From a virus (Duplodnaviria > Caudoviricetes), in the IMG/VR virus record IMGVR_UViG_3300027851_000029, positions 1 through 61,927 of that record: 61,927 nucleotides of DNA; one strand, 5' to 3'. A program made the translations under genes and the position numbers. The notes beneath the pieces were generated by a model. It was not told the DNA's origin and did no database searches. It worked only from the letters and a program-made list of their open reading frames with translations. Below, one piece after another: positions 3,825 through 42,410 of this stretch (the stretch's first letter is position 1; the number at the start of each line of letters is the position of its first letter).

Positions 3825-5107
3825 CCGAAGTCGCCGAACTCCCGCGCCTGGACATGCCCGAGAAGCTGGCCGGCATCTGGAAGCCACGCCGGTACAAGGC
3901 CATGCACGGCGGGCGAGGTGGCGGCAAGTCTTGGACCGTGGCCGGCGTGCTGCTGCTGATGGCCGCTGGCGCACCGCTGCGGGTGCTTTGCGCGCGTGAA
4001 ATCCAGAAGTCCATGAAGGACTCGGTTCACCGGCTGCTGACCGACCAGATCAACCGCCTGCACCTGCATGGGTTCTTCGAGGTGCTGGACACCGAGATTC
4101 GCGGCATCAATGGCTCGCTGTTCCTGTTCACCGGCCTGCAGAGCCACACCGTGGACTCGATCAAGTCCTTTGAGGGCGTGGACATCGTTTGGGTCGAAGA
4201 AGCCCACGGCGTGAGCAAAAAGAGTTGGGATGTGCTGATCCCGACCATCCGAAAGGAAGGCTCAGAAATCTGGCTCACCCTGAACCCGGACATGGAAACC
4301 GACGAGACCTATCAGCGGTTCATCGCCCACCCGAGCCCGGACACATGGGTTTGCGAAATCAACTGGCGCGACAACCCCTGGTTTCCCCGCGTGCTGGACG
4401 ACGAGCGAAAGAAGGCCAAGCGGACCATGCTCAAGGACGACTACGAGCATATCTGGGAAGGCAAAGCCCGCCGCGTGGCCGCTGGCGCCATCTACCGGCA
4501 CGAGGTCGAGACGATCTATCTTGATGGCCGTGTTTGCGCGGTGCCATATGACCCGATCCTGCCGGTGCACACGATATGGGACTTGGGCTGGAACGATGCT
4601 ATGACCATCGGCCTGGTGCAGAAGGGCCCACAGGACATCCGCATCATCGGCTACATCGAGGATAGCCACCGCACGCTCGATTGGTACGTGGCCAAGCTGG
4701 AGAAGCTGCCCTACCGCTGGGGCATCGACTTCCTTCCCCACGACGGCAAGACAAAGAACTTCCAGACCGCCAAGTCCACCGAGGACCGTATGAAAGAACT
4801 TGGGCGCAGGCCGTACCCCGGCTGCTTGCCCATGCAGAACGTCGAGGAAGGCATCAAGGCCGCGCGCATGGAGTTCCCGAAGTGCTACTTCGATGAACTG
4901 AAGACCGCGCGCCTGCTGGAGTGCCTGAAACGCTACCAGCGCCAGATCCACACCGTGACGAACGAGCCCATGGGGCCGCTGCACGACGAATTCAGCCATG
5001 GCGCCGATATGTTCCGCTACCTCGCCCAGGCGGTCCAGCTCATGAAGAACGAACCAGTGCACAGCAAACAGGAAGAAGAGCGCGTCACCGAAGACTGGCG
5101 CTTGTGA
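3821..5107 (+). CDS. terL: terminase large subunit (PBSX/Terminase_3-like)
   Basis: Walker A GGRGGGKS, Walker B VWVEEA, LNP coupling motif, nuclease WDLG and HGADMFRY. Confidence 0.95.
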   Translation: MTEVAELPRLDMPEKLAGIWKPRRYKAMHGGRGGGKSWTVAGVLLLMAAGAPLRVLCAREIQKSMKDSVHRLLTDQINRLHLHGFFEVLDTEIRGINGSLFLFTGLQSHTVDSIKSFEGVDIVWVEEAHGVSKKSWDVLIPTIRKEGSEIWLTLNPDMETDETYQRFIAHPSPDTWVCEINWRDNPWFPRVLDDERKKAKRTMLKDDYEHIWEGKARRVAAGAIYRHEVETIYLDGRVCAVPYDPILPVHTIWDLGWNDAMTIGLVQKGPQDIRIIGYIEDSHRTLDWYVAKLEKLPYRWGIDFLPHDGKTKNFQTAKSTEDRMKELGRRPYPGCLPMQNVEEGIKAARMEFPKCYFDELKTARLLECLKRYQRQIHTVTNEPMGPLHDEFSHGADMFRYLAQAVQLMKNEPVHSKQEEERVTEDWRL

Positions 5108-17650: not shown

Positions 17651-19441
17651 ATGGCCCTGTACCCGAAACTGCCGGATGGCCCGAGTCCTGTCGGGACAGC
17701 GCAGGTGCGGGCGCAGCGGGTGGCCGGCGGTGACTGGCAGTTCAGCCAGCGCAACGCCACTACCAAGACGCGGGTCAGTGGCGAATTCAGCCGCGTCAAC
17801 ATCGAGCAACTCGGGTTCCTGACCTACGGCTACCCGAAGTCCGACATACAGCAGGGCCGAACGGTCACGCGCTACCAGCTTCCGGCACAGCCCATCCCGA
17901 CCCCGAAGACCGAGATTGCGGACGTGGCTCCGACGCCGGGAGCGACCTACTTCGGCGGCATCCTGCAGGACTACTCGCAATTCGACACCTTCGCCTACAC
18001 CTACACCTTTGACGCCGAGGTTCTGGGTGGTGGCACGGAAGAACAGACGCAGGAGGTTGATTACCGAATCATGCGCCGGCATGTGCAGATCGCCCGGTTC
18101 AACCAGTGGGGCGGGCACAAGGTCCTGGCCGATGTGTTCCCGGCGACCACGCTCCACCTGTACGACGGCTTCACCAGCGCCGACGCGCAACTGTTCCCGG
18201 TGTTTTCTCCGTGCATGGCCTTCGCCGGGAAGATCCCGAGCACGGTATCGGACGCCCATGTGAATGCGGTGTTCTGCGCCTACCCTCGGTTTTCCGAGCG
18301 GGTGGACACGGCGGGCCGGCCGCGCAATGACCCATCCGTCACCGTGGTGCAGCTGGGGCAGACGTCCTACAACTTCGCCATCGCATCCGAGGTGTTCGCC
18401 GACCCCGATGTGGAATTCGCGCAGTACATGCCGTGCATCGCCACAGAAAACCACCTGGCGGTGCTGATGCGGGAACGCTTCTACTGGACCGAGTACAGCG
18501 GTGCGCTGGACCCGCGCGACTACTCGCGCAAGTTCTGGATGCTGCGCGCCATCAACAAGAATTTCAGCACGCTGGAGGTGCTGGACCTGACGGCGCTGTT
18601 TGACGGCCAACTGTCCAACGAAACCTTCTGGTCGACGGCGGACTTCTACTACCCGGCGGCCTGGTTCACGCACATCGATGAACTCGCGGCCCAGCACATG
18701 CGGACGGTGGCGCTGCCGAACAACGTCTTCCTGCTGTCCTATTTCGTGATGAAGTACGGCGTGCTCGAAGGCACATTCAGGACGCACCACGACATCCGCA
18801 TTGCCCGCATCGACATGAGTGCAGGCGTCGCGGCATCGATCACCTACGACGAGCCCACGGTTCGCATGGGCGAGTTGTTCGACTCGCCTTCGCTGCCGTC
18901 CCTGTTCTGGCCCGGCCTGTTCGTGTCGTGCATGGTGCACCTGGGCGAGAACTACGTCTTGGCGAAGCTGGGCCACGGCCTGCAGCCATCGGCCAAGGCC
19001 TACAGCGACGCCGACGCGACACACCTGACGGTAACGCCGGGCGAAGAACCCCTGACGTTCATTCGAAGCACGGACGGCGGCCTGACTTGGGCCGACATCA
19101 CGCCGACCGGGTTTGATGCAGACCTTGAGCTCGGCAAGTTCGGCGACTTCACGGTGATCGAGCCGCGCAAGGATGGCGCTCCCGGGGTTGTGGCGGTCAA
19201 CTCATGGCGGGCAGAAACCAGCAGCTACCACGTCTACGTATCCAAGGATGACGGCCTGACGTGGACGCGCCAAAGCAAGATCATCACCGCCGAGACATTC
19301 CGGCGCATGGATGGGTCTTGGCGCGACACCCGCGGCCTGGTGCTGGACGGAGCCAAAGACCTGAACACATTCCGCCACCTGATCCCGACATCGGGCCTAC
19401 TGGACGTGACGATTCCCGAACGCTACACGGACAAACCATGA
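17651..19441 (+). CDS. BNR/Asp-box beta-propeller tail protein
   Basis: STDGGLTW and SKDDGLTW Asp boxes. Confidence 0.65.
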   Translation: MALYPKLPDGPSPVGTAQVRAQRVAGGDWQFSQRNATTKTRVSGEFSRVNIEQLGFLTYGYPKSDIQQGRTVTRYQLPAQPIPTPKTEIADVAPTPGATYFGGILQDYSQFDTFAYTYTFDAEVLGGGTEEQTQEVDYRIMRRHVQIARFNQWGGHKVLADVFPATTLHLYDGFTSADAQLFPVFSPCMAFAGKIPSTVSDAHVNAVFCAYPRFSERVDTAGRPRNDPSVTVVQLGQTSYNFAIASEVFADPDVEFAQYMPCIATENHLAVLMRERFYWTEYSGALDPRDYSRKFWMLRAINKNFSTLEVLDLTALFDGQLSNETFWSTADFYYPAAWFTHIDELAAQHMRTVALPNNVFLLSYFVMKYGVLEGTFRTHHDIRIARIDMSAGVAASITYDEPTVRMGELFDSPSLPSLFWPGLFVSCMVHLGENYVLAKLGHGLQPSAKAYSDADATHLTVTPGEEPLTFIRSTDGGLTWADITPTGFDADLELGKFGDFTVIEPRKDGAPGVVAVNSWRAETSSYHVYVSKDDGLTWTRQSKIITAETFRRMDGSWRDTRGLVLDGAKDLNTFRHLIPTSGLLDVTIPERYTDKP

Positions 19442-19968
19442 TCGACGTTCACGTCCTGACCCACGCTGGAACCCGGATCGACTGGCTGGCCGAATGCCTG
19501 CGCTCGCTGGAGGATGAGCCCTGCACGGTGCACGTCATCCGCAACATGGGCGGCACGGTGGGACATGGCCGCGCGCAAGGCTACCAGCGGGGCTCGCACC
19601 CGTTCGTGACCTACGTGGACAGCGATGACTTTGTGTACCCGGGCGTGATGGCGGCCGTCATCGAAGGGCTCAAGACACACGCCAGCGTCTGCACCCATGA
19701 GATTGCCTTGCACAACGGTGTAGGGTTTTTCAGAAAGCCTCGCGGTGGTCACAATCTGTTCGCAGCCCGTCGAGAGGCGATTGAACCGCTGCTGGACCAC
19801 ATGGAAACCATCGACTACCTGAGCGATGTCATGGTTCGAAGGCACCTGAAACCTGCGCAACTGGACTTTGTGGGCTACGCATGGCGGCTGCACGAAGGAC
19901 AGGCCCATAGGAACATCAACGGCGCCATGTTGCGCCAAGAGATTGAGAGGTGCCAATGGCGCAACTGA
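19438..19968 (+). CDS. glycosyltransferase, GT-A fold (GT2-like)
   Basis: IDVHVL..WLAECLRSL, GRAQG, FVTYVDSDD (DxD); ATGA-coupled to the upstream gene. Confidence 0.8.
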   Translation: MIDVHVLTHAGTRIDWLAECLRSLEDEPCTVHVIRNMGGTVGHGRAQGYQRGSHPFVTYVDSDDFVYPGVMAAVIEGLKTHASVCTHEIALHNGVGFFRKPRGGHNLFAARREAIEPLLDHMETIDYLSDVMVRRHLKPAQLDFVGYAWRLHEGQAHRNINGAMLRQEIERCQWRN

Positions 19969-21767
19969 TTAAGAACCAAGCGATCACGTACATTCCCGGA
20001 ACCGCTGGGCGGCCAGGATATCCCGGCCAGCCCTATCGCTCGGCCAGGACGACGACATCCCGCGTGCAGGTGTGCAGTTACACGCCAGCCTTGCCGCTGA
20101 ATATTCTCACGCAATCGACGTACAACACCAGCTACCGCACCCCATCTGGCGGCAAGCGCTGCACCATGCAGACAGTCACGATCTACCAGGCCGAGCAGCC
20201 GTATATCGCACCCATCCCGTCGGTCCCCGCATCGCCGGCAACCATCATCTACAACTTCAAGCTGGGGTGGAATGGTCGCGCGCGCTCGATTGACTTCCTG
20301 AAAGGCCCGGGTCGCTTCACATTCACCATCCCGGTATCGGACGTCGGCGCCGTGGTCGGCCTGTCGCGCTCACCACAGAAGGAAGGCTTCAACGACATCC
20401 TGCACGGCTTCTATGTCGCGCACGGTGTCATCCGGGTCTACGAATCCGGCGTCGAGGTGTTGTACGTCGGCGGCATCCCGAATGCGGTGCTGTCGATCAC
20501 GCGCACCAATGGCACCATCGAATACCGGGTGAACGGCACGCTGGAGCACACCGGAACGGACGCGGGCGGGTCAATGTACCTCGCTGCCTCGCTGTATTCC
20601 GGCGGCGATTCTGTGCTCGCCTACAGCATGGTCGAATGGGGCGAGTCGGTGATGGATTCCGGCTTCAAGCCCATGCAGGGCTTCATGGGAACCGAGTCCT
20701 ATGCCGGGGCCGCTGGATCGTTCAAGCCCATGACAGGCAGCATGAGCAGCATCCGACGCGCGCAGATGTCGGGGTCAACGAAGCCCATGGTCGGCAACCT
20801 GGCGGACGGCACCGGGTATTGCCAGATCACCAGCTCATTCAAGCCCATGACGGACGAGGTGTATGGCTTCGGGCTGGAGCCTGAATACAGCCTTGGCTAT
20901 GGCTTCATGCTACCCATGCAGGGCGTGATGACCTGCCTCACGGGCCGCATCGCCAGCATGGCGAGCTCGACCAAGCCAATGTCGGGTTGGATGGCAGATC
21001 GACCATATGCCAGCATTCAGAGCGACCTCAGCCCCATGGTTGGCTACGCAGAAAACTACCTGCTGCCCGGCCAGGGCGTGCTGACCAACTACCTGTTCGG
21101 CGTCACCAACATGACGGCCGGCGTGACGCTGTACGCGATCATCGACGCCAACATGCAGGTGACCGGCCTGATGCAGGTGCAGACCACGGCCACCGGCAAC
21201 ATCCCGGTTGGGCTGTCGGCTTCGGCCTCGATGGAGGTGCAGCTCACGGTCAAGGCGTTCATCGAATCCCTGTTCCAGCCATCGGCGGGCGCTTTCGATC
21301 AGGCCGGCGAACCGCTGACGGTCTGGGCGCTGAACATGGACATGAACGGGTCCACCCGTTACGAGGGCTACGACTTCAACAGCTTCGCCGAAATTGGAGG
21401 CCTGTACTACGGCGCCAAGTACGACGGCCTGTACCTGCTGGAAGGCCCGGACGACGCCGGCACGGCGGTGGACGCCTCGGTGAATTTCGGCAACCTGAAC
21501 TTTGGCACCATCGCGCGCAAGGCGCTGCCGTACCTGTACTGCGGTGTGGCATCAAACGGAAACCTGATCCTCAAGGTGGTGGCCGAGGGCGCGACCCACC
21601 TCTACACCGTGCGCGACAACACCGAGCTTTTGAAGGCGCACCGCTTCGAGCCAGGGCGCGGCCTGCGCGCCAGCTACTACGACATCACGATCATGAACGA
21701 AGGCGGCACGGCGTTTGACCTGGCCGAAATCGAGTTCTTCCCGCTTGCACTTTCGAGGAAACTGTAA
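19956..21767 (+). CDS. virion/tail protein with internal KPM-x-G repeats
   Basis: Long ORF with conserved-looking C-terminus (TRYEGYDFNSFA...GRGLRASYY). Confidence 0.7.
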   Translation: MAQLIKNQAITYIPGTAGRPGYPGQPYRSARTTTSRVQVCSYTPALPLNILTQSTYNTSYRTPSGGKRCTMQTVTIYQAEQPYIAPIPSVPASPATIIYNFKLGWNGRARSIDFLKGPGRFTFTIPVSDVGAVVGLSRSPQKEGFNDILHGFYVAHGVIRVYESGVEVLYVGGIPNAVLSITRTNGTIEYRVNGTLEHTGTDAGGSMYLAASLYSGGDSVLAYSMVEWGESVMDSGFKPMQGFMGTESYAGAAGSFKPMTGSMSSIRRAQMSGSTKPMVGNLADGTGYCQITSSFKPMTDEVYGFGLEPEYSLGYGFMLPMQGVMTCLTGRIASMASSTKPMSGWMADRPYASIQSDLSPMVGYAENYLLPGQGVLTNYLFGVTNMTAGVTLYAIIDANMQVTGLMQVQTTATGNIPVGLSASASMEVQLTVKAFIESLFQPSAGAFDQAGEPLTVWALNMDMNGSTRYEGYDFNSFAEIGGLYYGAKYDGLYLLEGPDDAGTAVDASVNFGNLNFGTIARKALPYLYCGVASNGNLILKVVAEGATHLYTVRDNTELLKAHRFEPGRGLRASYYDITIMNEGGTAFDLAEIEFFPLALSRKL

Positions 21768-22723
21768 TGGCCACCGTTGACCAAATCATTGACCGCTCCA
21801 TCGCGCTGGGCGACCTGAAAGCCGCGCAGTCCGAGGCCTACGGCGGGCAGGCCGTCAACGCCGCCACCGGGCACGGCGACGTGTTTGCGCCCAGCATCGA
21901 GAATACGCCGAACATCCGGGAACCCAGCGTCATCATCCCGAGCCGCGCAACAGGGGTGGACAGCGCTCTGTTCGACTCGACCTATGACAGGATCATGGGC
22001 GACTTCACGGACAAGTACGCGGACTTCATCGTCAGGTACTTCCCGTTGAACCCCGCCTTGATGGCCGCCGTTGAAAGCTGGTTGCAATCGGCCATCGCTG
22101 GCGGGACCGGCATCAATGCCAATGTGGAACGTGGCATCTGGCAGCGCGACCGCGACCGCATCACCAACGAGTTTCAGGCCGCGGCCGACGAGGCCGTGGG
22201 TTCATGGGCTGCGCGAGGCTTCCCGCTGCCTCCAGGCGCCGCGGTGGCCACGGTGCAGGACATCGCCCGCAAACGCTCCGCCGCCCTGGCCGCCGTTAGC
22301 CGGGACGCCGCCATCAAGGCCTTCGAGACTGAAATCGAGAACGTGCGCTTCGCCATCACAACCGCCATCGACTACCGCAGCAAGGCCATCAGCGCGGCCG
22401 GCGACTACATCCGGGCCCTGGCGCTGGGTCCGCAGCTCGCAACGCAACTGGCGACCGAGGCTTCCGGAGCGCAGGCCCGGCTGATTTCTGCCGCCGCCGG
22501 GTTCTTCAATGCCCGCATCAGCGCGGCACAGCTGGCGCAGCAGAAGAACATCGCCGAGGCCGACATGGAAATGCGCGCAGCCATTCAGACCGATGAGGGC
22601 CGGGTCCGGTACGTGCAGATCAAGTCGAACGCCGCGCTGGGTGTGGCGCAGTCGCTGGGCACCCAGGCCGCTGCCGCCCTGAACGCCGTCAACGCCACGG
22701 TTCAAAAGATCGTGAGCGAGTGA
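21767..22723 (+). CDS. internal virion (ejection) protein
   Basis: Ala-rich and helical, AARGFPLPPG motif; TAATG overlap. Confidence 0.65.
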   Translation: MATVDQIIDRSIALGDLKAAQSEAYGGQAVNAATGHGDVFAPSIENTPNIREPSVIIPSRATGVDSALFDSTYDRIMGDFTDKYADFIVRYFPLNPALMAAVESWLQSAIAGGTGINANVERGIWQRDRDRITNEFQAAADEAVGSWAARGFPLPPGAAVATVQDIARKRSAALAAVSRDAAIKAFETEIENVRFAITTAIDYRSKAISAAGDYIRALALGPQLATQLATEASGAQARLISAAAGFFNARISAAQLAQQKNIAEADMEMRAAIQTDEGRVRYVQIKSNAALGVAQSLGTQAAAALNAVNATVQKIVSE

Positions 22724-22742
22724 CGCCCATAGGGTTCGACGG

Positions 22743-22759
22743 GTCTATTCTCATTAGAC
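22743..22759. promoter_or_regulatory. repressor operator-like site upstream of tnpB
   Basis: GTCTAT-N5-TTAGAC has half-sites identical to the reverse complement of 57029-57045; overlaps TTCTCA-N17-CATAAT (22748-22776). Confidence 0.6.
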
Positions 22760-22846
22760 AAGCTCCGAGGCATAATGCTGGCATGGATATCAATCAGTTC
22801 TCGGTTCGATGTTTGCTCGCCCGTTGAGCTGGAGGGCCTTGACCGC

Positions 22847-24112
22847 ATGAGCGCGCCTGCCATCACACGAGCAACCGTGCTGCGCCTGTACCCAAATCAG
22901 CAGCAGGCATCGTCCCTGCGCCGATGGCAGGGAGTGCTGCGCTACGTCTGGAATGCAGCACTGGACTGCATGTTCACGTCACGCGACATCAACGGCCGCT
23001 GGCCCACGAAGGCCGAGATCCAGACCCTGATCGTTGGGATGAAGAAAATGGAGGGGACCGAGTGGATCTCCGACATCCCCGCTCACGCGCTGCTGACGCT
23101 GGCCGACGATCTGCACAAAGCGTTGCTCAACTGGTTCAACAGTCTCTCGGGCAAGCGCAAAGGCCCAAAGATTGCCCGACCACGCTTCCGAGGAAAGTTT
23201 GCCCGGCAGTTCTCGATCTACATGGTCAACCAGAACACTTCGTTCGGCGAGGGCCAGGTCAAACTGCCCAAGCTGGGCCTGGTGAAGTATCGGGGCGGCG
23301 ACCTCCCTTCCGGTCGCCTGCTGTCCAGTCGCGTCTACCGCGAGGCGGACAAGTGGTACATGGCCAGCATCTTCGAGTGCACTGCACCGGAGGTGAATGC
23401 CGCACCTGTTGAATGCGTTGGCATCGACATGGGCCTCAAGACGTTGGCCACCATCTATGACGGTCATAGCATCCGCGAGGTGCCAAAGTTGGGCGCCCTG
23501 CGAAAGCATGAGCAGAGGCTGAAGCGATACCAGCGACGGATGAGCCGCCGTGTCAAGGGGAGCAACCGCCGCAACCGTGCCAAGCTGGCCATCGCACGGC
23601 TGCACCAGCGCATCGCCAACATCCGCAAGGACTACGCGCACAAGGCCACCAGCGAGATCGTGGCCAGTGCGCAAACTATCAAGGTCGAGACCCTCAACGT
23701 CAAGGGCTGGGCGAAGAACCGAAGCATCTCCAAGAGCACCGCCGACGCCAGCGTCGGGATGTTCCTGAAAATGCTGCGCTACAAGGCCGCCTTGGCAGGC
23801 AGGAGCCTGGTTGAGGTTGGCCAATGGGAGCCGACCAGCAAGACCTGCAGCGACTGCGGTGCCCGTGAGCCCGGCGTGGTTCTGGGCGTCAGTCGATGGG
23901 TGTGCAGCGCCTGTGGCGCGATCCACGATCGCGATCACAACGCGGCAAAGAACATTTATGCGTACGGCGAGGAACGCCGAAACGTGACCGGCAACACGGT
24001 CGAAAGCGCGTGGACTGGTGGAGATCAGGCGGGAGCAATCTCGCCAGTGCCCCAGGTTGAAACGCGAATCTTGAAACGGGCCACGCGCGAGTCAAATCGC
24101 GCGCTTGCCTAA
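22847..24112 (+). CDS. tnpB: RNA-guided endonuclease TnpB
   Basis: N-terminal LRLYPN HTH, RuvC-I GIDMG, RuvC-II KVETL, Zn ribbon CSDC..CSAC, RuvC-III DRDHNAA; RBS GGAGG at 22831. Confidence 0.95.
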   Translation: MSAPAITRATVLRLYPNQQQASSLRRWQGVLRYVWNAALDCMFTSRDINGRWPTKAEIQTLIVGMKKMEGTEWISDIPAHALLTLADDLHKALLNWFNSLSGKRKGPKIARPRFRGKFARQFSIYMVNQNTSFGEGQVKLPKLGLVKYRGGDLPSGRLLSSRVYREADKWYMASIFECTAPEVNAAPVECVGIDMGLKTLATIYDGHSIREVPKLGALRKHEQRLKRYQRRMSRRVKGSNRRNRAKLAIARLHQRIANIRKDYAHKATSEIVASAQTIKVETLNVKGWAKNRSISKSTADASVGMFLKMLRYKAALAGRSLVEVGQWEPTSKTCSDCGAREPGVVLGVSRWVCSACGAIHDRDHNAAKNIYAYGEERRNVTGNTVESAWTGGDQAGAISPVPQVETRILKRATRESNRALA

Positions 24113-24151
24113 AGTAAATAATTCCGGGGTTCGACAAGCAAGTCTCGCACC
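23965..24151 (+). ncRNA. predicted omegaRNA scaffold plus guide (boundaries approximate)
   Basis: Hairpins overlapping the tnpB 3' end (CGGCG/CGCCG, GACCG/CGGTC, GGCGGGA/TCTCGCC, CGCGCGA/TCGCGCG); this is the established omegaRNA location. Confidence 0.55.
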
Positions 24152-24159
24152 AGAACAAT
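24123..24159 (+). promoter_or_regulatory. late promoter 5 (degenerate upstream box, TCCGGGGTT-N22-AACAAT)
   Basis: Same spacing as the other copies; copy 4 lies at 22728-22764. Confidence 0.55.
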
Positions 24160-24184
24160 CACTACATCAGAACAGGAGCCCACC

Positions 24185-26023
24185 ATGCAAGGCTTTCACC
24201 CGCAGAAACACAAGACCCAGCCGAAGAACTACGCCAATGGCGGCATCGTCAAGGGGCCAGGAAGCGGCACGTCCGATAGCGTTCCGGCCATGGTTCCCAA
24301 GGACGGCTACGTCATGCCAGCCGACTCCGTGCAGGCGCTGGGATTCAAGCCCGGCATGCGCGCTGTGCAGTTGAGTGATGGCGAGGCGGTGCTGAACCCG
24401 CAGCAGGTGCAGGCCGCTGGCGGGTTTCAGGCGCTGGATGCGATGAAGGCCGCCACGCACACGCCGGTACCCGAGCAGGGCGCAGAAGGGCAGAAGTTCT
24501 TTTTTGTCAACGGCGGGCCGCTGGACGATGAAAAGCGCAAGCCGTTCATGCCGACGCTGGCGCCCGAAGTGCAGCAGGGCATGACCAAGATGTACAGCGC
24601 CAGCATGCCGCCGCAGCCGCAGCCGACCCCAGCCGCCGTGCAGCCTCCTGCCGCGAGTGGTTTCGTTTCCAGCATGGAGCGGAATCAGCGCGCTCTTGAC
24701 GCATCGACGGCATCCGGCCCGGCAGTCCCGGCCGCAAAGCCGGTGAACCCGACAGAGGTCGAGGGCTGGAGAACCAAGGCGGTCATGGATGGGGCAGCCG
24801 AAGACGCGCAAGCCGCATGGGACCGCGGCCAGGTCGGGCAAGCTGCCGGCGCCGTGGCTCGTGGGGCCATCACAGCTGTACCGACAGCCATCGGAGAATT
24901 CGCCTACAACACCGTGGCGCCCGTTGCTGGTGCTGCGAAAGGCTTCTGGAATGGCCTGACTGGCGGTGCTGATGCCACTCAGATCCCGGTGACGCCGGCT
25001 CAGGCCGCGCCAGTTGTTCCGCCCGCCACCCAGGCGCAACCAGCCGATCGCCCGCCAGCCGCGACCCAGGCCGTGGCGCCATCCGGTCAGCCTGAAAAAC
25101 CAGGCACGCCAGCCGCCCAGGCGAACGCACAAGCCCCTGCTGTAACCCAAGTCGCACCCGGCGTGTTCCAGCACGGGCGCGGCCAGTTCAGCGACAACGC
25201 CGCCGGCATGGGCTTCAAGCCCGGCTTCACCGGCCAGCCCAGCGCGCAGAACATGGACGCCGCCGACAACCTGGCGCAGCGATCCGCTGCCCGTGGGTTC
25301 ACGCCGCAGGTTCAAGCCCCAGCGCCCGTGGCGTCTCAGAACCTCACGCCACCCGACACCGGGCAGGGCTATGGTTTCGGCCTGGCGAACTCCAGCCGCA
25401 TCCAGCAGCGCAACCTGTCGATGGATGTGCAGCAGAACAAGCCCGGTGCAAAACTGGCGCTCCAAGGATTCTTGCAGCAGCAGGCCGACGCACCAGGCCA
25501 GCAGATCGAGCGCGACCGACTGGCGCAGTCCGCGACCAACTCGGCCGCCGACCGTGGCTTCCGCTCGCAGGAACTGACCGCTCGCATGGGTGACTCAGCC
25601 GCCAATCGCGACCTGAAAGCACAGGAACTGGCCGACAACTCGGCGACGAACAGCATCAAGCGCGATGCCGCTGGCGTGGATCTGGAGACGGCGAAGCAGA
25701 TGCAGAAGCTGCAGAGCGACTACATCAATGCCAAGACGCCGGAAGCCCAGGCCGCAGCAGCGAAGAAGATCCAGACGCTGGCCGGCAAGCAGGACAAGGA
25801 CAACCGCTTCACGGTGGTTCCTGGCGGGCAGGAGTTCGATGCCGCGGCCGGCGTGATGCGCAACGTGCCTGCGCGCGTGCTGAACAACCAGACCGGGCAG
25901 TTTGTCGATGGTGGGCAAGGTGGGCAGGCGCAGCTTCCACCAGGCATGACGAAGCAAGTCGGGACATCGAACGGGAAGCCTGTCTATGAGGACGCCACCG
26001 GAAAGCGATTCATCGGAGGTTGA
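24185..26023 (+). CDS. internal virion (ejection) protein
   Basis: GGIVKGPGSGTSDSVPAM motif, Ala/Gln/Pro-rich; lies before the giant protein. Confidence 0.7.
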   Translation: MQGFHPQKHKTQPKNYANGGIVKGPGSGTSDSVPAMVPKDGYVMPADSVQALGFKPGMRAVQLSDGEAVLNPQQVQAAGGFQALDAMKAATHTPVPEQGAEGQKFFFVNGGPLDDEKRKPFMPTLAPEVQQGMTKMYSASMPPQPQPTPAAVQPPAASGFVSSMERNQRALDASTASGPAVPAAKPVNPTEVEGWRTKAVMDGAAEDAQAAWDRGQVGQAAGAVARGAITAVPTAIGEFAYNTVAPVAGAAKGFWNGLTGGADATQIPVTPAQAAPVVPPATQAQPADRPPAATQAVAPSGQPEKPGTPAAQANAQAPAVTQVAPGVFQHGRGQFSDNAAGMGFKPGFTGQPSAQNMDAADNLAQRSAARGFTPQVQAPAPVASQNLTPPDTGQGYGFGLANSSRIQQRNLSMDVQQNKPGAKLALQGFLQQQADAPGQQIERDRLAQSATNSAADRGFRSQELTARMGDSAANRDLKAQELADNSATNSIKRDAAGVDLETAKQMQKLQSDYINAKTPEAQAAAAKKIQTLAGKQDKDNRFTVVPGGQEFDAAAGVMRNVPARVLNNQTGQFVDGGQGGQAQLPPGMTKQVGTSNGKPVYEDATGKRFIGG

Positions 26024-26457: not shown

Positions 26458-26494
26458 CATAGGGTTGGACGCCGAGCGACGCACCCGCGAAAGT
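26458..26494 (+). promoter_or_regulatory. late promoter 6, leaderless to the giant protein
   Basis: CATAGGGTT-N22-GAAAGT, ATG 6 nt later. Confidence 0.75.
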
Positions 26495-26500
26495 GCGGGG

Positions 26501-29500
26501 ATGGCGAACAACGACATCACTCCATTCGACGGCGAACTTGACGAAATCAAGCCAGCCACTATCAAACCGTTCGATGGGAGCCTGGATGGCGAAACACCAT
26601 CCCGAGGCTTCAAGGGTTGGGCGCAAGACATCGGCGCCACCGCATTGAAGGGTGCCATCGGCGTGCCCGAAGCCCTGGTTGGTCTGGCCGACATCCCAAC
26701 CGGTGGCGCAGTCGGAAAGTTCTTGGAGAACGAAGGCGGTTCTGTCGGCTTCCGGCCCAAGCAGGCCAAGGAAATCGCCAACGACTGGCACTCCGACGCC
26801 ACCAAGCAGGCGCAGCAGAAGTTCCAAGCCGCTGAAGGCATTGGCGGCAAGCTGCAGGCGGCCATCGAAAACCCCAGCATCATCGCCACGTCGATTGGCG
26901 AATCGCTTCCTGCCATGGGTGCCGGCGGTGTCGCAGCGCGCGGCCTGCTGGCGGCAACCCGACTCGGTGCCATGGGCGCCCAGGGCGCGGCCATTGCCGG
27001 CGCTGCCGGTGAAGGCGCGATGATGGCTGGCCAGCAGGCCGAATCCATCCGCCAGGAAACCGCCGATGGCTATCTGACGCCAGGACAGTCCGCTCTCGCA
27101 GCTGGAACCGGCCTGATCGGTGGCGTGGTCGGTGCTGCCAGCGGGCGACTCGCCAACAAGCTGGGCGTCGGCGACGTGGACACGATGGTTGCCCAGGGCG
27201 CCAAGGCCTTGAAGCCCGTCACGCCGCTGGTGCAACAGCAGGCCATCAAGAGCATTCCCAAGCAGATCATCCAGGGCGCCATCACAGAAGGTTTCCTCGA
27301 AGAATTGCCGCAGTCGGTGGCCGAGCAGGTGCTGCAGAACATCGCGCTGGGCAAAGACTGGCATCAGGACGTGGACGCCGCGATTGTGCTGGGCACCTTG
27401 TCGGGTGGCGCCATGGGTGGCGGTGCAGCCGGGTTCAAGGGCTACATGGACCGCAGCACAACAGGGCCGGCGCCTGTCACGCCGCCGAAGCCCGGCCTTG
27501 ACCGCATGCGCCAGGAGTACGAGGCCCGTCTCGCGCAGCTCGCGCAAGAGGAATCCGGCGAACCACAGGTACCCCAGACCACGCCGCCCAATGGCCGAGC
27601 CATCCTCGACGCTCAAGCAGCGCAGGCCAAGGCCGCCAAGGATGCGCAGACCGCAGCAAACCGCGCGGTGATGACGCCAGATGACGAGATTTTCCAATCG
27701 ACCGGCGCCACGGTGCCACGTTCGGTGCAGATGGGCCTGAACCCAGCCAAAGGCGCCATGAGCGCCGCCGCCGCCGTGGCCGTTGACACTGGCGCCGCCG
27801 ATCAGGTGCAGCAACAGAACGCGATGACACAGGCCGCAGAGGCTGCATCGCAGGAGGCAAAGAAGCCCGCCAAGAAGTACGCACACCGCGTCAATGGCAC
27901 GCTGGATGGCAAGCCGTTTCAAACCATGGTCATGGCCGAATCGCCAGATGAAGCCATGGTCGCAGCCGTCAAGGCATCGCATGGCCTGCAGCCTTCAGCC
28001 GCCGAACCCGTTTCCAAAACCGCAACCCCTACCGCAACCCCTACCGCAACCCCGGGAGAAACCACCCTTGAGCCTCAAGCCATTGAGCCCGTCCAAACAG
28101 TCGCGAAAGAACCGCAAGCACAACCAGCCGTCGAAGGAGTAACCGATGTTGCCGATCAAACCAAGGCCGTTGCTCCCATGGCGCAAGCGAGCGAACCTGA
28201 AACGCAGAATCCAGGCGGCGAAGGCGGCAGCCCAGAGTCTGGGCCAGCAAGCAGCGTACGCCCTGAAATCACTACAGCTCCCGCAGATCTGAAGCCACCG
28301 CGCGGCATCCTGGCCAAGAAGGCAGAAGCCGACGCAGCCCGAGCAGGAGCAAAGAATGAACAAGCCACCCAGCCCACCGCCGCCGACACCAGCCCAGCTA
28401 CGGCGCCAGCAGCAGGCCGCACTGGTGTTTCTGGAGTCGATGAACAGGGTGCCGTACCGGCATTGAGCAATGTCCAAAACCCACAGAGCCGACCCGCCGG
28501 AACCGAAACCCAAGCCGCGCCAGTTGAAGCGAGCACGCCAGCACGAGGCGATGCAGCCGCAGCCGCTGGAATTCCCGCAGCGGGACAAGACGCCGGTGTA
28601 CGGGCGGATGGGGTAAGCGACGAGGCGCCGACCGTACAGCAGTTGCGCGACATGCCGATTGACACAAAGGAGCAGGCCAAGGCCTACGCCGATGGCTACG
28701 CAAAACGACTGGCCGCAGAGGCCAAGTACGGGCAGGGCCGGTTCATCGGAGCCAATGAGAAGCCGTGGTCTGTTGCCAACGCTGACCTTGCAGAAAAGAA
28801 CGTCAGGGCCAATGAGGCGGCAGAACTGAACTACTGGCAGAAGCCATACGAAGATGCCATCAAGGAATTCCGATTCCAAGGATTGCCCCGCGCCAAGTGG
28901 GAAGCAGAGCGCAAGAAACGCGGCATGACAACCGAAGTTGCAGCACCTGGAGCCGGTGACGTCCAAGTCGATGGGGTGAAGATCGCCGAGGCCGCGCACC
29001 AGGCTGCGACCAGCCACAAGAACGACTTGCCGCAACCCACCGAGGCACAGAAAGAAGCTGGCAACTACGCCAAGGGCCACATCACGATCGGCGGCCTTGA
29101 CATCACGATCGAGAACCCAGCCGGCAGCAAGCGCCGCCCAGAGTGGCCCGCGCTCAAGAACCACTACGGCTACTTCAAAGGCTCCATTGGCGCCGACAAG
29201 GATCACGTTGACTTGTTCATGACCGACCGGGCTGGCGATGCCAGCCTGCCGGTGTTCGTGGTGGACCAGACCAACCGCGACGGCACGTTCGATGAACACA
29301 AGGTGATCATGGGCGCCGCCGACGAGGCCGAAGCCCGCGCGACCTACCTGCAAAACTACGAGAAGGGCTGGACCGGACTGGGCGCCATCACACAAATGTC
29401 GCAGGACGAGTTCAAGGCCTGGGTGCGCGACCCGGACAAGACAAAGAAGCCGGTGGCGCTCAAGCGTGGCGTGCTGGCGAAGATGGCAGCGCAGAAGGCA

Positions 29501-32500
29501 AAGGCCGACCAATCCAAGCCGAAGCCTGAAACCACCGCCAAGGCACCGCCAGCAGAGCCGGTGAAGCCTGAGCCAGCACCGCAGCCGAAGGCGGAGAAGC
29601 CTGCCAGCAAGACGCCGACCCTGGACGAGCACACCGCGGCCATCAAGGCGGTGCGCGCCGGCACGGCCAGCATTGAGTCTTACCAGGCCTCATTCGCGTC
29701 CATGGTTGACGACCCGTCTGCCGTCAAGGTTGAGCTGAACACGCTGAACAAGGAAACACTGCTGCGCTCCGGTGGCGCCTTCTTCTACCAGCGCTACAAG
29801 TCAGAAAACAAGGCCGATGTCATCGATGCCATGTACGACGCCCTGGTCAACGAGTACGCGCTGGGCAAGGAGTACGGCCCGACCGGCTACATGATGGGTG
29901 AGCGCAAGAGCTACGATGCCGCCAAGGCCAAAGCGCTGCGCGATCTGGTTGACGGTCAGACCGCCGAAACGCTGGCCGAGTTCGCATCCGAGGTGAAGAA
30001 GGCCAGCGACGAATACAAGGCAGAGCGCGAGACCAGGGCTAAAGCACTGGAAAACCCGCAAACCCTGGATGACTTCCGGGCCGTCATGCGCGAGCACATC
30101 AGAGGTGGAAAGACCCGCAAGGAAGCCTTCCTGATGTTCACGCCAGAACAGCGGGTCAAGTTCGATGAGATGGAGGCTGAGACCACCAAGGAGGCTCGCG
30201 AAACCCGCAAGCGCGAGCGCAAGACAGAAGTCCGTGCGGCAGGCCAGACCACGGGCGGAGAAGTCATTTCCACCAAGCACACCCGAGACGGCTACGACCT
30301 GTTCGTGGTGCAGTTGTCTGATCGCCTGAGCCGTGAGGACTACACGACCGTGCTGGCCAGCGCCAAGAAGTTGGGCGGTTGGTACAGCGCATTCCGCGTG
30401 AAGGGTGCCGTGCCAGGGTTCCAGTTCAAGGACAAGGCAAACGCCGAAGCGTTCTTGAAGCTGGCTGGCGGCGATACGACCGACGCACAAGCGCAGGCCG
30501 AGCAGCGCCGGGATGCCTTCGAGGACAACCGCAGCGAAACCGCAGTGGAGCGGCTGCGCGCCATGGCCGACAAGCTGACCGAGCAGGCTGCCGAGATTGA
30601 GGGCCGCGACCGCAAGACCAACACCGCGCGCCGCGCCCGCTTTGCATCAAGCGCACTGGCCGAGGCTTCCGGCATGAAGGCCAAGGCGCAGACCATGCGC
30701 AACGTGGCGCAAGCCATCGATGACGGCAAGGCAAAGTTTCTGGACGGAATCCGAACCAAGTCCCATGTGGACATGCTGACCGGCCTGGTGGCGACGGCCA
30801 AGAACAACGAGTTGATCGCCAAGTACGAGACCTACGCCGAACAGGAGAAGCGCAAAGGGGAGCCGCCGACCGCTGAGACGGCCGACTTTGCCGAGTTCCC
30901 GGCATTCACCGCCTACCGCTCAGACCTTGCCAGCCTGGCCCGCCAGATGCAGGACGTTGACGGCACGAAAAAACTGGGCGACCAGTTGATGAAGGTGGCC
31001 GACGACGTGTCAGACGCCTATCTGGCGTTCGCCAAGGATCCCGGAAATCTGTTCAAGCTGTCCACGTTCAGCGTGCGCCGCGGCGACGAGGTGAAGGCCG
31101 CCATTTTCCCGAGCAAGGATCTTGCCGAGCGTGCCATCAAGCGCAGCGGGTTGACCGGCAAGGCCATCGTGCTCGCCGAGAAGCGCGGCGTGAACCGCAT
31201 CATCATGAGTCCGAGCGAGGCCATCAATGCTGGCATCTGGACGGGCGACGGCGACAAGCGTATCACTCTGACCGTTGACGCCGGCAACACGCTGGTGGAT
31301 GCCATCGGCCGCCGCGGCAACAAGGCCAACGGTTTGACCGTGCCGTGGCAATTTCAGACCGCAAGCGATCGCCTGAAGGCCCTGGCCCGCATGGGAATCG
31401 AGACACCAGCCGAGTACCGATCGACCTTGCGCGAGTTCATCGGCATGCAGGAGCGTGCAGTCGCCAACAAGGTGCGAGAGATGGAACTTGCTATGGCCGG
31501 CAAGAAGAATGACGGCCTGGACTTCTTCCCGACGCCGGCCGAGGTGGCGGACCAGATGGTGGAGGCCGCCGACCTGTCGCCTGACATGGCGGTTCTGGAG
31601 CCCAGCGCCGGCATGGGGCACATCGCTGACCGCATCCGCGCGGCAGGCGCCGAGCCTGATGTGATCGAGATTTCTCCGGATCGGCGCGAGCTGCTGGAGG
31701 AAAAAGGCTACCACCTTGCCGAGACCGACGACTTCATGGCAATGCAGCCGCGCGGTTTCTTCACCTACGGCGACCGCTTCCGAGCGCCAGACGGCACCGA
31801 TGGGATCATGCGTGGTGTGAGCCAAAGCCGCGTGCGATTGGAAGATGAGCAGGGGAACCGACTGGGCCTGTACGACCGTGACGAATTGACCGGCATCGGG
31901 CACCGCGGCTCATGGAGCGGATACGACCGCATCATCATGAACCCACCGTTCAGCAAGCGCCAGGATGCCGAACATGTAAGGCACGCTTACACGTTGCTCA
32001 AGCCGGGCGGCCGGATTGTGGCGATCATGGGCGAAGGCGTGTTCTTCGGCCAGGACAAGAAGGCCCAGGATTTCCGAGACTGGCTGGACGAAGTTGGCGG
32101 AACCGCCGAGAAGTTGCCGGCCGGCAGCTTCATGGACCCGAGCTTGCCAGTAAACACTGGCGTGAATGCCCGCATGGTGGTGATCGACAAGCCTGCTGGC
32201 GATTTGAAGATGGCCCCGATCGATGACACGGAATCCGACACCACGGAAACCAAGGATGAAGCCAACTACGGCACCAAAGACCAAGCCCAAGGCACCCCCA
32301 CAGACCGCGCCGTCATGGCCATGGCCGGCGACGGCAAGAGCGCCGACGAAATCCTGCGCTTCATCGCCAACGCTTCGAAGTCCCAATTCAACCGCCAGAT
32401 TGCGAACCTGCTGCGCCGCACCAAGGCCAACCCGGCGGTTTCCATCGGTGGCGAAATGGGCGGTGGCGCTGGCTTCAAGTTCCTCGCCAAGTACAGCCGC

Positions 32501-35500
32501 AAGAATCACGAGGTCACGCTGTCCGAAGGCGCCAGCGGCAAGGCCGAGCAGATCCTTCTGCATGAGATGGTGCACGCCGCAACCCTGCTGGCGCTGGACC
32601 GTGGAGGCGAGCACGCGGCCCGCATGAGTGCGCTGTACGAGTCGGTGAAGGCTCAGGGCCTGGATGACGCCTACGGCATGAAGAACGTGGGCGAGTTCGT
32701 GGCCGAAGCGTTCACCAACCCAGAGTTTCAGAAGGCGCTCAAGGGCTACAAGGCCCCGGGCGGAACGGCATGGGATCGGTTCGTCGCAGCGGTGCGCCGC
32801 ATCCTGGGCCTGTCGGACAAGTCGCAGGACGCGCTGTCGGCTGCGCTGGAGCTGGGTGTCGAGGTGATGCGCGAGAACGTGCCGCTGCGCAAGGCGCGCA
32901 GTTTCAGCGCGGAAGATGCGCCGGAATACTTCGGCATGGCCGACGCTGCCAGCCTCAAGCAGTCCGCCCTGGACCAGATCCACCAGACCCTGAGCCACCC
33001 CGGCAAGGTGTCGGTCTGGGATAAAACGATCGGGACAATGCGAAATTTGTCCGAGCGCTCGCCCGCCTTCAAGCCGGTATTCGACGCCGCCCAGCGCTTC
33101 CTTGATGACGTTTCCCTGCTGGCCAACGAAGCCGCCGACGTGGCGCCGCGCCTGCTGCCGAGCGTGGAGTCCTGGCGCGACCTGACTAAGAAGCCGGTCA
33201 GCGCAGAAGACAACAAGGCAATCAGCAAGCCGATCTTTGAGGGCACGCTGATGTGGGGCCGAGACACGGACGGAAAACCCGTTCTGGTGGACGACATGGC
33301 GAAGAAGTACGCCGACCTGAGCACCGAGAAGCGCGCCAAGATGCTGATGGCCGCCGGCCGGCTGGACGACCGCGTGCTTCGCATGTGGCAGGGCCTTCCA
33401 TCGGATCAGTTTGACGCCCTGGTCAACAGCCGCTTCGAGAGCCAGATGCTGAAAGCTGGTGTGGTCTGGAAGGATGCCGAGCTGAAAGCGCTGTTCAACC
33501 TGAACGACCAGCAGATCAGCCTGTACCGCGAAGCCCGTCAGGCCATCGACCGCTCCATCGACCTGACGGCACGCGCCGACATGCTGCGCGCCGTGGGCAC
33601 CGGGTACGCCAGCATGCGAGACGCCGTGCTGGAGTTGCCGACGCTGGCCGACGCCCGCGACTTGTTGGTGGAAACGCTGCACGCCGACGCGCTGGACAAC
33701 GAAGACCAGGCCGACCGGCTGTCCGGGATGATCAACACCATCGCCGATCGGTTTGAGAAGGCGACCAGTCTGATGAAGGACGGTTACGCCCCGCTGTCTC
33801 GCTTTGGCCGCTACACGCTGGATGTGGTGGACGCCAGCGGAGAGCGCCAGTATTTCGGCATGCACGAAACCATCCGCGACGCGAACCTGGCGAAGATCCA
33901 GATGACCGCCGAATTCCCCGGCGCCACGGTCACGCAGGGCACCATGAGCGCGGAAGCCTACAAGCTGTTCGCCGGCATCACACCCGAGTCGCTGGAGCTG
34001 TTCGGCAACATGCTGGGCCTGGACGCCGAAGGTGGCGACGCCCGCGACAAGGCGTTTCAGGAATACCTCAAGCTGTCGAAGAACAACCACAGCGCATTGA
34101 AGCGCCTGATGCACCGAAAGGGCATCGCCGGTTACAGCGAAGACGTGGGCCGGGTGCTGGCGAGTTTCGTCTACTCCAACGCCCGCCAGGCTGCGGGTGG
34201 GCTGAACGCCGGGACCATCGAGGAAGCCGTCAACGCGATCCCGAAGGATCAGGGCGAACTGAAAGACGTTGCGATGGGCCTGCGCGACTACGTGCGCGAC
34301 CCGCAGGAGGAAGGCCAAGCCATCCGCGGCATGCTGTTCGCGCAGTACCTGGGGGGTTCGCTGGCATCGGCTTTCGTCAACACGACGCAGCCGTTCGCCG
34401 TGACCCTGCCGTGGTTGAGCCAGTTCGGCGGCATGAAGGTGGCCGGCAAGCACCTCGCCAAAGCCTTGAAGGACATGGCCGGCAAGGGCGCCTACGAGGC
34501 CGACCTGAAAACCGCGCTGGCCCGCGCCGAAGAAGACGGGGTTGTGTCGCCACAGGAAATTCACGCCCTGATGGCCCAAGCGCGCGGCGCTGGCGGCCTA
34601 CGATCGGGTGATGGCACCCGGGCCGGCAACGCCCGCGCATCCGCATCGAACGCCTGGGAGCGCACGAAAGTGGCATGGGGCCAGCCGTTCGCCCTGGCAG
34701 AGCAGTTCAACCGCCGGTCCACGTTCATCGCGGCCTACCGGCTGGCGAAGGAAAGAGGCATGCAGCGCCCGGACCAGTTCGCGCGCCGCGCGGTGCTGGA
34801 AACGCAGTTTCTCTACTCCAAGGCCAACAAGCCGAAGTGGGCGCGCGGCGCCATCGGAGGCACGCTATTCACCTTCAAGGTCTACAGCATCTCCTACCTT
34901 GAGCTGATGAACCGCATGTGGACGCAAGGCGGACCAGAAGGAAAGCGCTCCGTTGGCTGGGCGATGGTCATGCTGATGCTGATGGGTGGCGCTGGTGGCC
35001 TGCCGTTCTTGGAGGATCTGGAAGATCTGATCGACGGCATCGCGCAACTGATGGGCTACAACGTGAGTTCCAAGCAGTGGCGCAAGCAGGCCATTGAGGA
35101 TGTCATCGGCAAAGAACTGGGCGAGTTCGTCAATTCCGGCCTGTCTGGCCTGCCAGGCGCACCCATCGACGTGTCGGGCCGCCTGGGCATGGGCGACCTG
35201 ATCCCCGGCACCGGCCTGCTCATGACCAAGCAAAGCCGCGAGCGCGACCTGATGGAGATTGTTGGACCGGCCGGCGACTTGGTGGCGCGCGGATTCACCG
35301 GAGCCCGCAAGGCGCTGTCGGGCGACCTGGGTGGCGCGGCGCTGGAACTGTCCCCTGGTGCCGTTCGCAACGCGGCCAAGGGCATCGACATGATCACGTC
35401 GGGCCAGTACAAGGACGCCAAGGGCTACAAGGTGCTCGACACGACGCTACCAGAGGCCGCAGCCAAGCTGATCGGGTTCCAGCCGCGCAGCGTGGCCAAG

Positions 35501-42147: not shown

Positions 42148-42388
42148 GTTGGCACTGGTGTTGGCATCATGTCCTGATGACCGTGAAACACCGTTGATTT
42201 TGAAGCGAAAAACTGGCGAGCGTGGAATCCTCTCGCTCCGCCAATTTGCCCCAGCGTTACCCATCAGTAACGCTGGGGCTTTCTTTTTTTCCCTCTATGA
42301 TCGCGGCTCCATCCACCAGGATAGCCCGACATTTCCAGACGTTCACGGCGATAGACCGTGTGGCATCGGTTGGCATCCGTGGTGGCAC
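42148..42388 (+). other. attP: tRNA 3'-end-like core with arm-type repeats
   Basis: GAATCCTCTCGCTCCGCCA at 42225-42243; TGGCA(T/C) direct repeats at 42148-42168 (x2) and 42358-42388 (x3). Confidence 0.7.
42248..42290 (+). terminator. intrinsic terminator behind the att core
   Basis: Perfect 13-bp stem GCCCCAGCGTTAC/GTAACGCTGGGGC plus T run. Confidence 0.85.
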
Positions 42389-42410
42389 GCAAAAAGTGAC
42401 AGGGATGCGG

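Follow-up and report, generated by a model that had tools for sequence, protein, structure and literature searches.

A phage insert carrying an intact tnpB is most likely a transposase-less derivative of an IS1595-family element

The DNA analyzed here (hereafter the window) is a complete IMG/VR virus record, IMGVR_UViG_3300027851_000029, of 61,927 bp and an estimated completeness of 96%. Its genes for a terminase, a portal, a major head protein, a 3110-residue multi-domain virion protein, a tail fibre, an integrase (42222–43565) and a DnaB-type helicase identify the phage, by gene content, as temperate and tailed. Positions 22740–24126 hold an insert of 1387 bp that is almost certainly an internally deleted, non-autonomous element of the IS1595 family of DDE transposons, devoid of its transposase, carrying an intact module of the nuclease TnpB and its predicted omegaRNA, flanked by an 8-bp target-site duplication and lodged in a late promoter-like motif. 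An earlier annotation made from the letters alone (the sequence-only reading) had taken the insert for an IS200/IS605-type element; relatives identified it instead as a deletion derivative of a DDE transposon with inverted ends. The combined statement that joins this anatomy to a selfish role, namely the cutting or conversion of alleles lacking the insertion, is in our judgement fairly probable, the role being one that we infer.

Ten further loci encode a TnpB 88–97% identical to that of the window (L002, L003, L045, L130–L133 and L135–L137). The elements in L130 and L131 are 2252 bp each. In L130, L131, L132/L137 and L002 the gene directly upstream of tnpB encodes an IS1595-type transposase, and its stop codon overlaps the tnpB start (ATGA) in the relatives. 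The product at these loci is a 310-residue protein with the domains Zn_ribbon_IS1595 and DDE_Tnp_IS1595, which scored 182 bits against the NCBIfam model of IS1595 family transposases (cut-off 75; domains and model checked for L131). In L134, a more distant locus (TnpB 66% identical), the DNA upstream codes for the C-terminal portion of a related transposase (74% identity across 85 residues). The ends of the elements are inverted over about 23 bp (CGG...TATTTACTTTAGrCAAG): in the relatives, CGGGyCTATTTACTTTAGACAAG precedes the transposase gene and is matched in inverted orientation by the right end, ...CTTGyCTAAAGTAAATAATTCCG. In the window, the left inverted repeat (IRL; 22740–22762, + strand) was located by alignment with the left ends of L130, L131 and L132 and compared with the reverse complement of the right inverted repeat (IRR; 24104–24126, + strand, final bases ...AATAATTCCG). 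It has three extra mismatches (three core substitutions relative to the full-length copies).

The loss of the transposase gene can be followed on the same comparison. The repeat GTTCTCGG occurs in L130 at 1086 and 1951; this spacing of 865 bp is exactly the difference between 2252 and 1387. A tblastn search of the window with the transposase returned only its last 20 residues (291–310), at 22788–22847. This indicates that 865 bp of the gene were deleted between the two GTTCTCGG repeats, leaving a remnant of 14 codons and a stop (22783–22827, + strand) with the deletion junction GTTCTCGG at 22797–22804. The statement that no tnpA accompanies the gene held for a Y1 TnpA, but not for the IS1595 DDE transposase, of which the remnant at 22783–22827 is left. 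As to family membership, the DDE transposase with a zinc ribbon was found in full-length relatives, with the remnant only in the window, and both terminal inverted repeats and an 8-bp target-site duplication, the latter typical of the IS1595 family, were present. The features of the IS200/IS605 group were absent, inverted repeats, duplications and a DDE transposase being found instead of a Y1 (HUH) TnpA. Origins of the repeat from an IS607-type element (serine recombinase) or an integrase-type element were dropped once the inverted ends and the DDE gene had been found.

The limits of the insert follow from its flanks. The window reads ...CATA GGGTTCGA / CGGGTCTATTCTCATTAGACAAG ... AATAATTCCG / GGGTTCGA CAAGC..., with slashes at the ends of the element. 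Wherever the right end is present, similarity is lost sharply past TTCCG. The first eight bases after the shared ...TAAAGTAAATAATTCCG are GGGTTCGA in the window, GACCGGAG in L002, CCACTCCG in L045, CATAACTG in L130, GAAGGTCT in L131, CACCGATC in L132/L137, AGACACGC in L133, GCAGACCA in L135, TATGGCCG in L136 and GATTGGGT in L134. Thus nine distinct right flanks in ten close loci, plus that of L134, diverge at the base right after ...TTCCG; since similarity ends at one base in all loci, the element ends at 24126. The left copy of the duplication GGGTTCGA lies at 22732–22739, and the motif occurs as a single copy in a related contig lacking the insertion (L044, described below). Duplications of 8 bp were present in three of the five insertions with both ends available: the window, L131 (GAAGGTCT) and L132/L137 (CACCGATC). 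As to the other two, the left end of L135 is damaged and the flanks of L130 do not pair, being AACACGAT on the left (1000–1030) and CATAACTG on the right (3280–3300). AACACGAT occurs as a right flank in X15, an RNA-labelled sequencing run that holds other copies of the element as contigs, and L130 is either a recombinant of two copies or a chimeric assembly.

The direct repeats reported by the sequence-only reading were real in so far as GGGTTCGAC occurs exactly twice in the window, at both ends of the insert (22732–40 and 24127–35). Shuffled windows contained 0.56 copies on average and at least two in 9 of 100 cases, so the repeat by itself is not significant, and its meaning comes from the comparisons with relatives and not from the repeat count. 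These identify it as an 8-bp target-site duplication, GGGTTCGA, left by insertion; the ninth shared base is a coincidence between the first base of IRL and the next base of the target, and the repeat is not a copy of a target-adjacent motif (TAM) or of the target. A TnpB-only element of IS200/IS605 type placed 3' of a TAM, whose 9-bp repeats would serve as the target and as a matching cleavage site at the right end and whose guide (AAGCAAGTCTCGCACC) would follow the right repeat, would suit a protein whose closest solved structure is ISDra2 TnpB and whose score comes near to that of the NCBIfam IS200_TnpB model, under its cut-off. We consider it scarcely credible, as the right repeat falls outside the conserved end in all comparisons, no close copy has a Y1 transposase beside it (none was seen), and the element has terminal inverted repeats and 8-bp duplications, to which the full-length copies add an IS1595 DDE transposase gene.

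The tnpB gene (22847–24112, + strand) is intact. The open reading frame spans 22775–24112 (+ strand) and homologues begin at the ATG at 22847, giving a protein of 421 residues. It matched the Pfam families OrfB_IS605, Cas12f1-like_TNB and HTH_OrfB_IS605 (E values of 1e-27, 9e-22 and 7e-10, all above cut-offs) and the NCBIfam model guided_TnpB with 274 bits (cut-off 100); its 273 bits against IS200_TnpB lie under the cut-off of 425. Among solved structures the closest was ISDra2 TnpB (chain 8h1j), aligned with residues 8–371 at an E value of 2e-67. Residues D194, E281 and D363 (421-residue numbering) stand opposite the identical D/E/D of 8h1j, in agreement with the intact RuvC triad claimed earlier, and both CxxC pairs are present; from the ISDra2 literature we take these three residues to be the catalytic ones of RuvC. 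The system resembles ISDra2 TnpB (8h1j, 8bf8, 8exa) in domain order, D/E/D residues, CxxC...CxxC zinc finger and a 3' region of predicted omegaRNA-like structure overlapping the end of the open reading frame, and differs from it by a DDE partner instead of a Y1 TnpA, by inverted ends and by target duplication.

Selection on the gene was assessed with seven full-length tnpB genes of 421 codons each, that is, 21 pairs. The ratio of nonsynonymous to synonymous rates (dN/dS) was 0.08–0.17 in 19 pairs; it was 0.38 for the window and L130, between which changes are very few, and had no defined value for L131 and L003, which are nearly identical. These values indicate that TnpB is under purifying selection, the transposase-less lineages included. 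In the same 19 pairs dS was 0.43–0.84 in codons 1–360 versus 0.07–0.20 in the last ~60 codons. An alignment of the 3' region from ten loci yielded 64 predicted base pairs, 13 of them with compensatory changes that come mostly from L134, and the single-sequence fold had a z-score of −2.27. An Rfam scan of 23500–24300 gave chance matches only (E at least 2) and no family match. Low dS together with a conserved fold at the 3' end of tnpB is what an overlapping omegaRNA would produce, and this structured, synonymously constrained region looks like one. The predicted scaffold extends over 23927–24126 (+ strand; 5' limit approximate) and covers the last ~60 tnpB codons and the 3' untranslated stretch.

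The state of the transposase was compared in the 11 close loci, the window and the ten relatives. The gene is intact in L130 and L131, frameshifted in L132/L137, cut to its first 137 codons in L135 and absent from L003, L045 and, its stub apart, the window; in L002, L133 and L136 the contigs end and its state is not decidable. Four independent transposase-less lineages (the window, L003, L045 and L135) keep an intact tnpB with a dN/dS of about 0.1, a pattern indicating that the transposase was lost repeatedly while TnpB was kept. No transposase was found next to more distant TnpB loci (30–43% identity), its occurrence being limited to the close clade and L134.

The losses took different forms. 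In L003 (2990–3010) the tnpB ATG overlaps the stop codon of a phage gene with peptidase/endolysin domains, an independent transposase loss. In L135 (1546–2001), another independent loss, the first 137 transposase codons extend as far as the start of tnpB, and IRL differs in its outer 6 nt. Transposase matches in L132/L137 (1071–2001) lie in two frames that overlap near residue 153–156, reflecting either a frameshift mutation or a programmed frameshift; these two loci, with identical flanks, are probably one insertion assembled twice. In L045, from a metagenome-assembled genome (MAG) of Burkholderiales, tnpB and the right end stand between two copies (2309–2506 and 3787–3980) of a transglycosylase 3' end plus spacer, each of ~190 nt and roughly 80% alike by eye, with both the left end and the transposase missing. 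This arrangement looks like a gene disrupted by the insertion sequence (IS) and then repaired by recombination with an intact allele, through TTGACC microhomology next to the tnpB start.

The cassette occupies at least three phage contexts: the window, a site beside terminase genes in L002 and one that follows portal and peptidase/endolysin genes in L003. It adjoins transglycosylase genes in L045 and L132, and the surroundings of L045 are likely a conjugative region. Among 401 genomes of the order of the L045 MAG, only that MAG matched the full element over more than ~110 bases, 21 others giving short, weak matches; a search of PLSDB plasmids (blastn 'distant' mode) gave no match. TnpB homologues were found in 424 GenBank phage records, all below 60% identity. 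When viral contigs were scanned for exact matches to the cores of IRR and IRL, 11 were returned for each, all of them beyond L002 and L003 in unrelated AT-rich phages, and no new insertion sites came to light.

These contexts bear on whether the nuclease might be a weapon domesticated by the phage, destroying incoming or co-infecting insertion-free relatives to the benefit of phage or lysogen. The guide predicted below matches the promoter of close relatives, a sigma-70-like promoter within the element could express TnpB in lysogeny, the transposase was lost and the nuclease kept, and homing endonucleases are reported, in part of a preprint, to mediate phage competition (bioRxiv 10.1101/2023.09.30.560319). 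However, the cassette is kept without transposase in non-homologous contexts, the likely conjugative region of L045 among them, so that its retention is not phage-specific; moreover, the insertion is not conserved across phage lineages and a relative 92% identical to the window is mismatched at guide position 4. A domesticated weapon is thus very improbable in our view.

The empty site that the sequence-only reading had reconstructed, and proposed to seek in relatives, was found. L044 and L125, which are one contig, are 92% identical to the window over 18796–22740 and 91% over 24127–24625. In the BLAST alignment one 9-mer of L044 aligned with both 9-mers of the window, skipping 1395 bp. The junction ...GTGACGCCCATAGGGCTCGACAAGCAAGTCCCACACCAGAACAAT... 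(longer form ...CCCATAGGGCTCGACAAGCAAGTCCCACACCAGAACAAT...) is the reconstructed site with three substitutions.

Junctions were also found in populations, represented by assembled contigs. At least 48% of the sampled words of 22300–24600 occurred in each of 14 DNA runs, which belong to ten studies (freshwater, groundwater, soil, biofilm, sediment, aquatic), 48% being about the share of the element itself; contigs were examined for runs X1–X3, the habitats being provisional for the remaining eleven. In X1, filled-junction contigs had depths of 428 and 452, and a contig joining 22731 to 24127 (skipping 1395 positions, with nine ambiguous bases) had a depth of 11.3, some 2.5% of that of the filled allele. 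Run X2 belongs to another study; there one contig of depth 3.9 crossed the filled right junction with no differences, and another had AGTGACGCCCATA immediately preceding 24127, the arrangement of the empty form. Filled and empty phage forms apparently coexist in the same population.

The insertion lies, as first proposed, within a conserved late promoter-like motif. Six exact copies of CATAGGGTT were found, all on the + strand, intergenic and in the late region, versus 0.08 expected (0 of 100 shuffles); the bipartite pattern TAGGGTT-N22-GANANT matched seven times at one mismatch or fewer versus 0.16 expected. L126 and L127, whose upstream gene has 64% and 53% protein identity, carry yrTAGGGTT, 22 unrelated bases and GAAAGT or GAGACT in the same place. 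Its preservation at that spot marks the motif as a conserved two-part signal, and the late-region motifs would be promoters. The description as two boxes with a 22-nt gap was set aside, the signal being better read as an 8-nt box CATAGGGT, a −35-like hexamer (TAGACA, TTGCCG, TGGACG...), 17 nt and a weak −10, GAnAnT. Eight such late-region copies lie on the + strand, at 3091, 8056, 10893, 19721, 22728, 26458, 36038 and 39312, two of them with one mismatch, and that at 22728 is split by the insertion; the other copies share only GGGTT with the DNA next to the right end of the insert, as had been noted. A box just upstream of the −35 suggests the activator-dependent class of sigma-70 promoters.

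The insertion does not destroy the core of this promoter-like motif. With GGGT+TCGA covered by the duplication, the complete −35/−10 core and half the box are present at the right junction. The core (24131–24159, + strand; −35 TCGACA, 17 nt, −10 AACAAT) scored 9/12 in a consensus scan and is laid out as in the other motif copies. The upstream box CATAGGGT(T) (22728–22736, + strand), which L126 and L127 keep in the syntenic position, stays with the left junction, where it is followed by TCGACG-17-CAAGCT. The element itself contains a sigma-70-like promoter, TTCTCA-17-CATAAT (22748–22776, + strand), a consensus match only (9/12), which points into tnpB. The element is oriented like the late genes, and no terminator-like site was found on the + strand between 19500 and 24400. 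The preserved core, the shared direction, the promoter-like site of the element and this lack of a terminator-like site argue that the insertion is probably tolerated by the phage.

In TnpB systems the guide derives from the DNA just beyond the right end. Here it should begin at 24127 and read GGGTTCGACAAGCAAG (24127–24142, + strand), the 16-nt length being assumed by analogy; placed by the right-end boundary, it would consist of the right copy of the duplication (24127–24134) plus 8 nt, so that its first 8 nt are the target duplication. The sequence-only reading had likewise sought the guide in the DNA adjoining the right end, but its two proposed starts lie 2 or 9 nt downstream of this one. 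No second copy of the predicted 16-mer exists in the window, where the closest other site has three mismatches. An empty allele would be a perfect predicted target preceded by ...CCCATA; in the filled allele the right junction would be preceded instead by TTCCG of the element itself. At the left junction of the filled allele (22732–22740), nine guide-matching bases follow the same 5' context, CATA, and overlap the retained promoter box. Nine bases are probably too few for cutting, and seed-only binding of the guide there is conceivable.

As the duplications differ between insertions, a TAM has to be supplied by target DNA located 5' of the duplication, and the candidate TAM of this TnpB would have to be within ...CCCATA. 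The left flanks 5' of the duplication are CATA in the window, CGTA in L131, CGTG in L132 and AATA in L130, the last being the left flank of a duplication, AACACGAT, that recurs as right flank in X15; a T stands at −2 in all four. A fifth left flank would be CTTA, judging solely by a paralogous copy in L045. In DNA of 61% G+C the T at −2 is suggestive, and weak once the number of positions inspected is allowed for. The 3' sides (CA, TG, AG and GC) lack a mirror image of this T, in line with what a one-sided constraint from a TAM would predict. For ISDra2 TnpB, TTGAT is reported as a motif that supports cleavage (PMC11043419); it was not seen 5' of these insertions.

Taken together, the following history is favoured. 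The ancestor would have been a 2252-bp element with the order IRL, IS1595 DDE transposase gene, tnpB with omegaRNA, and IRR. By the DDE route it would have transposed into a temperate phage, between the CATAGGGT box and the −35 of a late promoter, duplicating GGGTTCGA; before or after insertion, 865 bp of the transposase gene would have been lost between the two GTTCTCGG repeats. Both ends, the promoter-like site in the left end, intact tnpB and an omegaRNA scaffold reaching the last base of IRR would be left over. Transcription running on into the flank would then yield the guide GGGTTCGACAAGCAAG, which opens with the 8 duplicated nt. TnpB would cut insertion-free sister or co-infecting phage genomes, and repair from the filled genome would copy the element in ('non-restorative homing'). 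Such selfish maintenance would be a by-product of the element and not a weapon evolved by the phage, and the cutting or conversion of empty alleles is plausible as the likeliest activity of TnpB. The stronger proposal that the module is an RNA-guided gene drive against the insertion-free late promoter (TAM ending in TA), converting or eliminating siblings during co-replication, would explain both the ~40:1 excess of filled forms and the outliving of the transposase by tnpB in four independent lineages; we regard it as doubtful.

Several observations weigh against a homing role. Every close copy occupies a different site, and the observed spread would therefore reflect transposition, with no trace of homing between lineages. 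The hallmark of homing, the same insertion at the same site in diverged genomes with co-conversion of the flanks, was not found: L044, L126, L127 and L128, the only relatives with this locus, are all empty. The L044 target has a C at guide position 4, which is a mismatch; for a different TnpB, single mismatches blocked cutting at weak TAMs and not at a strong one (PMC11043419). The three core substitutions of IRL may denote a decaying element. DDE excision in itself already leaves a break, which has been offered as one explanation of why DDE elements rarely carry TnpB (PMC13565253). As for the population data, the shorter side of the empty-site contig of X1 is 26 nt, minor-allele differences fall below the listing threshold, and the contig could stem from a relative that has diverged and not from an isogenic phage; the record may itself derive from X1, which would then not be independent; and the 40:1 ratio of filled to empty fits a clonal bloom equally well.

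A possible account, though on the unlikely side, is that of a passive passenger, an IS that jumped from a host replicon into a prophage and whose TnpB has no effect on phage or empty alleles, for want of a usable TAM 5' of the duplication or of a guide, the filled/empty polymorphism being drift or a lysogen bloom. The differing sites of all close copies, the degenerate IRL and a TAM that is not established speak for it, exposure to host insertion sequences is expected of a temperate phage (integrase at 42222–43565), and TnpB homologues in 424 GenBank phage records make its presence ordinary. Against it, tnpB stays intact at a dN/dS of about 0.1 in four lineages without transposase, the predicted omegaRNA region is constrained at synonymous sites and the 5' flanks share a T at −2.

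To our knowledge, a role for TnpB has been demonstrated only for IS605/IS607-type elements, which excise without a scar. IS1595-family insertion sequences with passenger genes were reportedly described by Siguier, Gagnevin and Chandler in 2009. The present element shares with that family the N-terminal zinc ribbon, the ISXO2-like DDE domain, the inverted ends and the 8-bp duplication, and differs in that its passenger is a predicted RNA-guided nuclease whose RNA reads across the right end. TnpB in DDE transposons with inverted ends, with solo TnpBs mobilized in trans, is known from the main text of Altae-Tran et al. 2023 (PMC10691335). Its branches DDE-1 to DDE-6 are alike in having TnpB inside an inverted-repeat transposon, with the 3' end <250 bp from the transposon end, and solo copies bounded by the ends of transposase-bearing relatives. 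They differ in that this main text names only IS630 and has zero mentions of IS1595, and in that here a variable 8-bp duplication would form the first half of the predicted guide. A 2026 review lists TnpB with ISL2, IS630 and IS1031 and discusses its rarity in DDE elements (PMC13565253). No paper linking IS1595 or ISXO2 with TnpB was found in the literature searched, PMC10691335 being covered by its main text. Literature matches to IS1595 concerned unrelated elements (e.g. PMC12507524), and the TnpB of PMC12888890 is an unrelated IS66 protein.

Non-restorative homing into co-infecting phages or plasmids is treated in part of the same review (PMC13565253) as a theoretical possibility for which plasmids provide evidence. 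Free-standing homing endonucleases of phages, treated in its section 3.2 under intronless homing and marker exclusion, are alike in the proposed cutting of the gene-free allele in a co-infecting genome and the copying-in by repair; here self and non-self would be told apart not by protein recognition but by a predicted RNA guide over the insertion point and a TAM. Fanzor in eukaryotic DDE transposons (section 6.2) is likewise a TnpB-family nuclease in a duplication-making transposon, but in that system the TAM is taken to include the 5' duplication and the scaffold contains the 3' one, whereas the duplications here vary (GGGTTCGA, GAAGGTCT, CACCGATC) and cannot be a fixed TAM. DDE-borne TnpB is already known; what is added is a natural filled/empty pair and an identifiable parent element. 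Why a cut-and-paste DDE element keeps TnpB is a point raised by the review (PMC13565253). The locus unites an autonomous IS1595–tnpB parent, a transposase-less derivative, an exact empty target and a predicted guide opening with the duplication, and so bears on where guides start in a duplication-making transposon, where the TAM lies if it can come from neither transposon nor duplication, and whether co-replicating phage genomes are subject to TnpB-driven homing. Should all of this fail, it is an ordinary IS insertion in a prophage.

Beyond the element, the top GenBank phage match of the major head protein was Pseudomonas phage 8P, with no identity above 61.7% to any phage, and megablast of the region against GenBank phages gave no near-identical match. 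The gene downstream of the insertion (24185–26023, + strand; 612 residues), whose upstream promoter the element splits, belongs to the virion module (phrog_11341, function unknown), and its first ~440 nt are 91% identical to L044 (window 24127–24625 aligned). Similarity to this 92%-identical relative ends within that gene, at a mosaic boundary ~1.6 kb from the insertion site; L044 from 5470 on has no BLAST match past window position 25707. The 3110-residue virion protein (26465–35797) shows matches to endolysin/lysozyme-like (~840–1030), DNA methyltransferase-like (~1014–1932) and DarB-like antirestriction proteins and is probably an ejected multifunctional protein.

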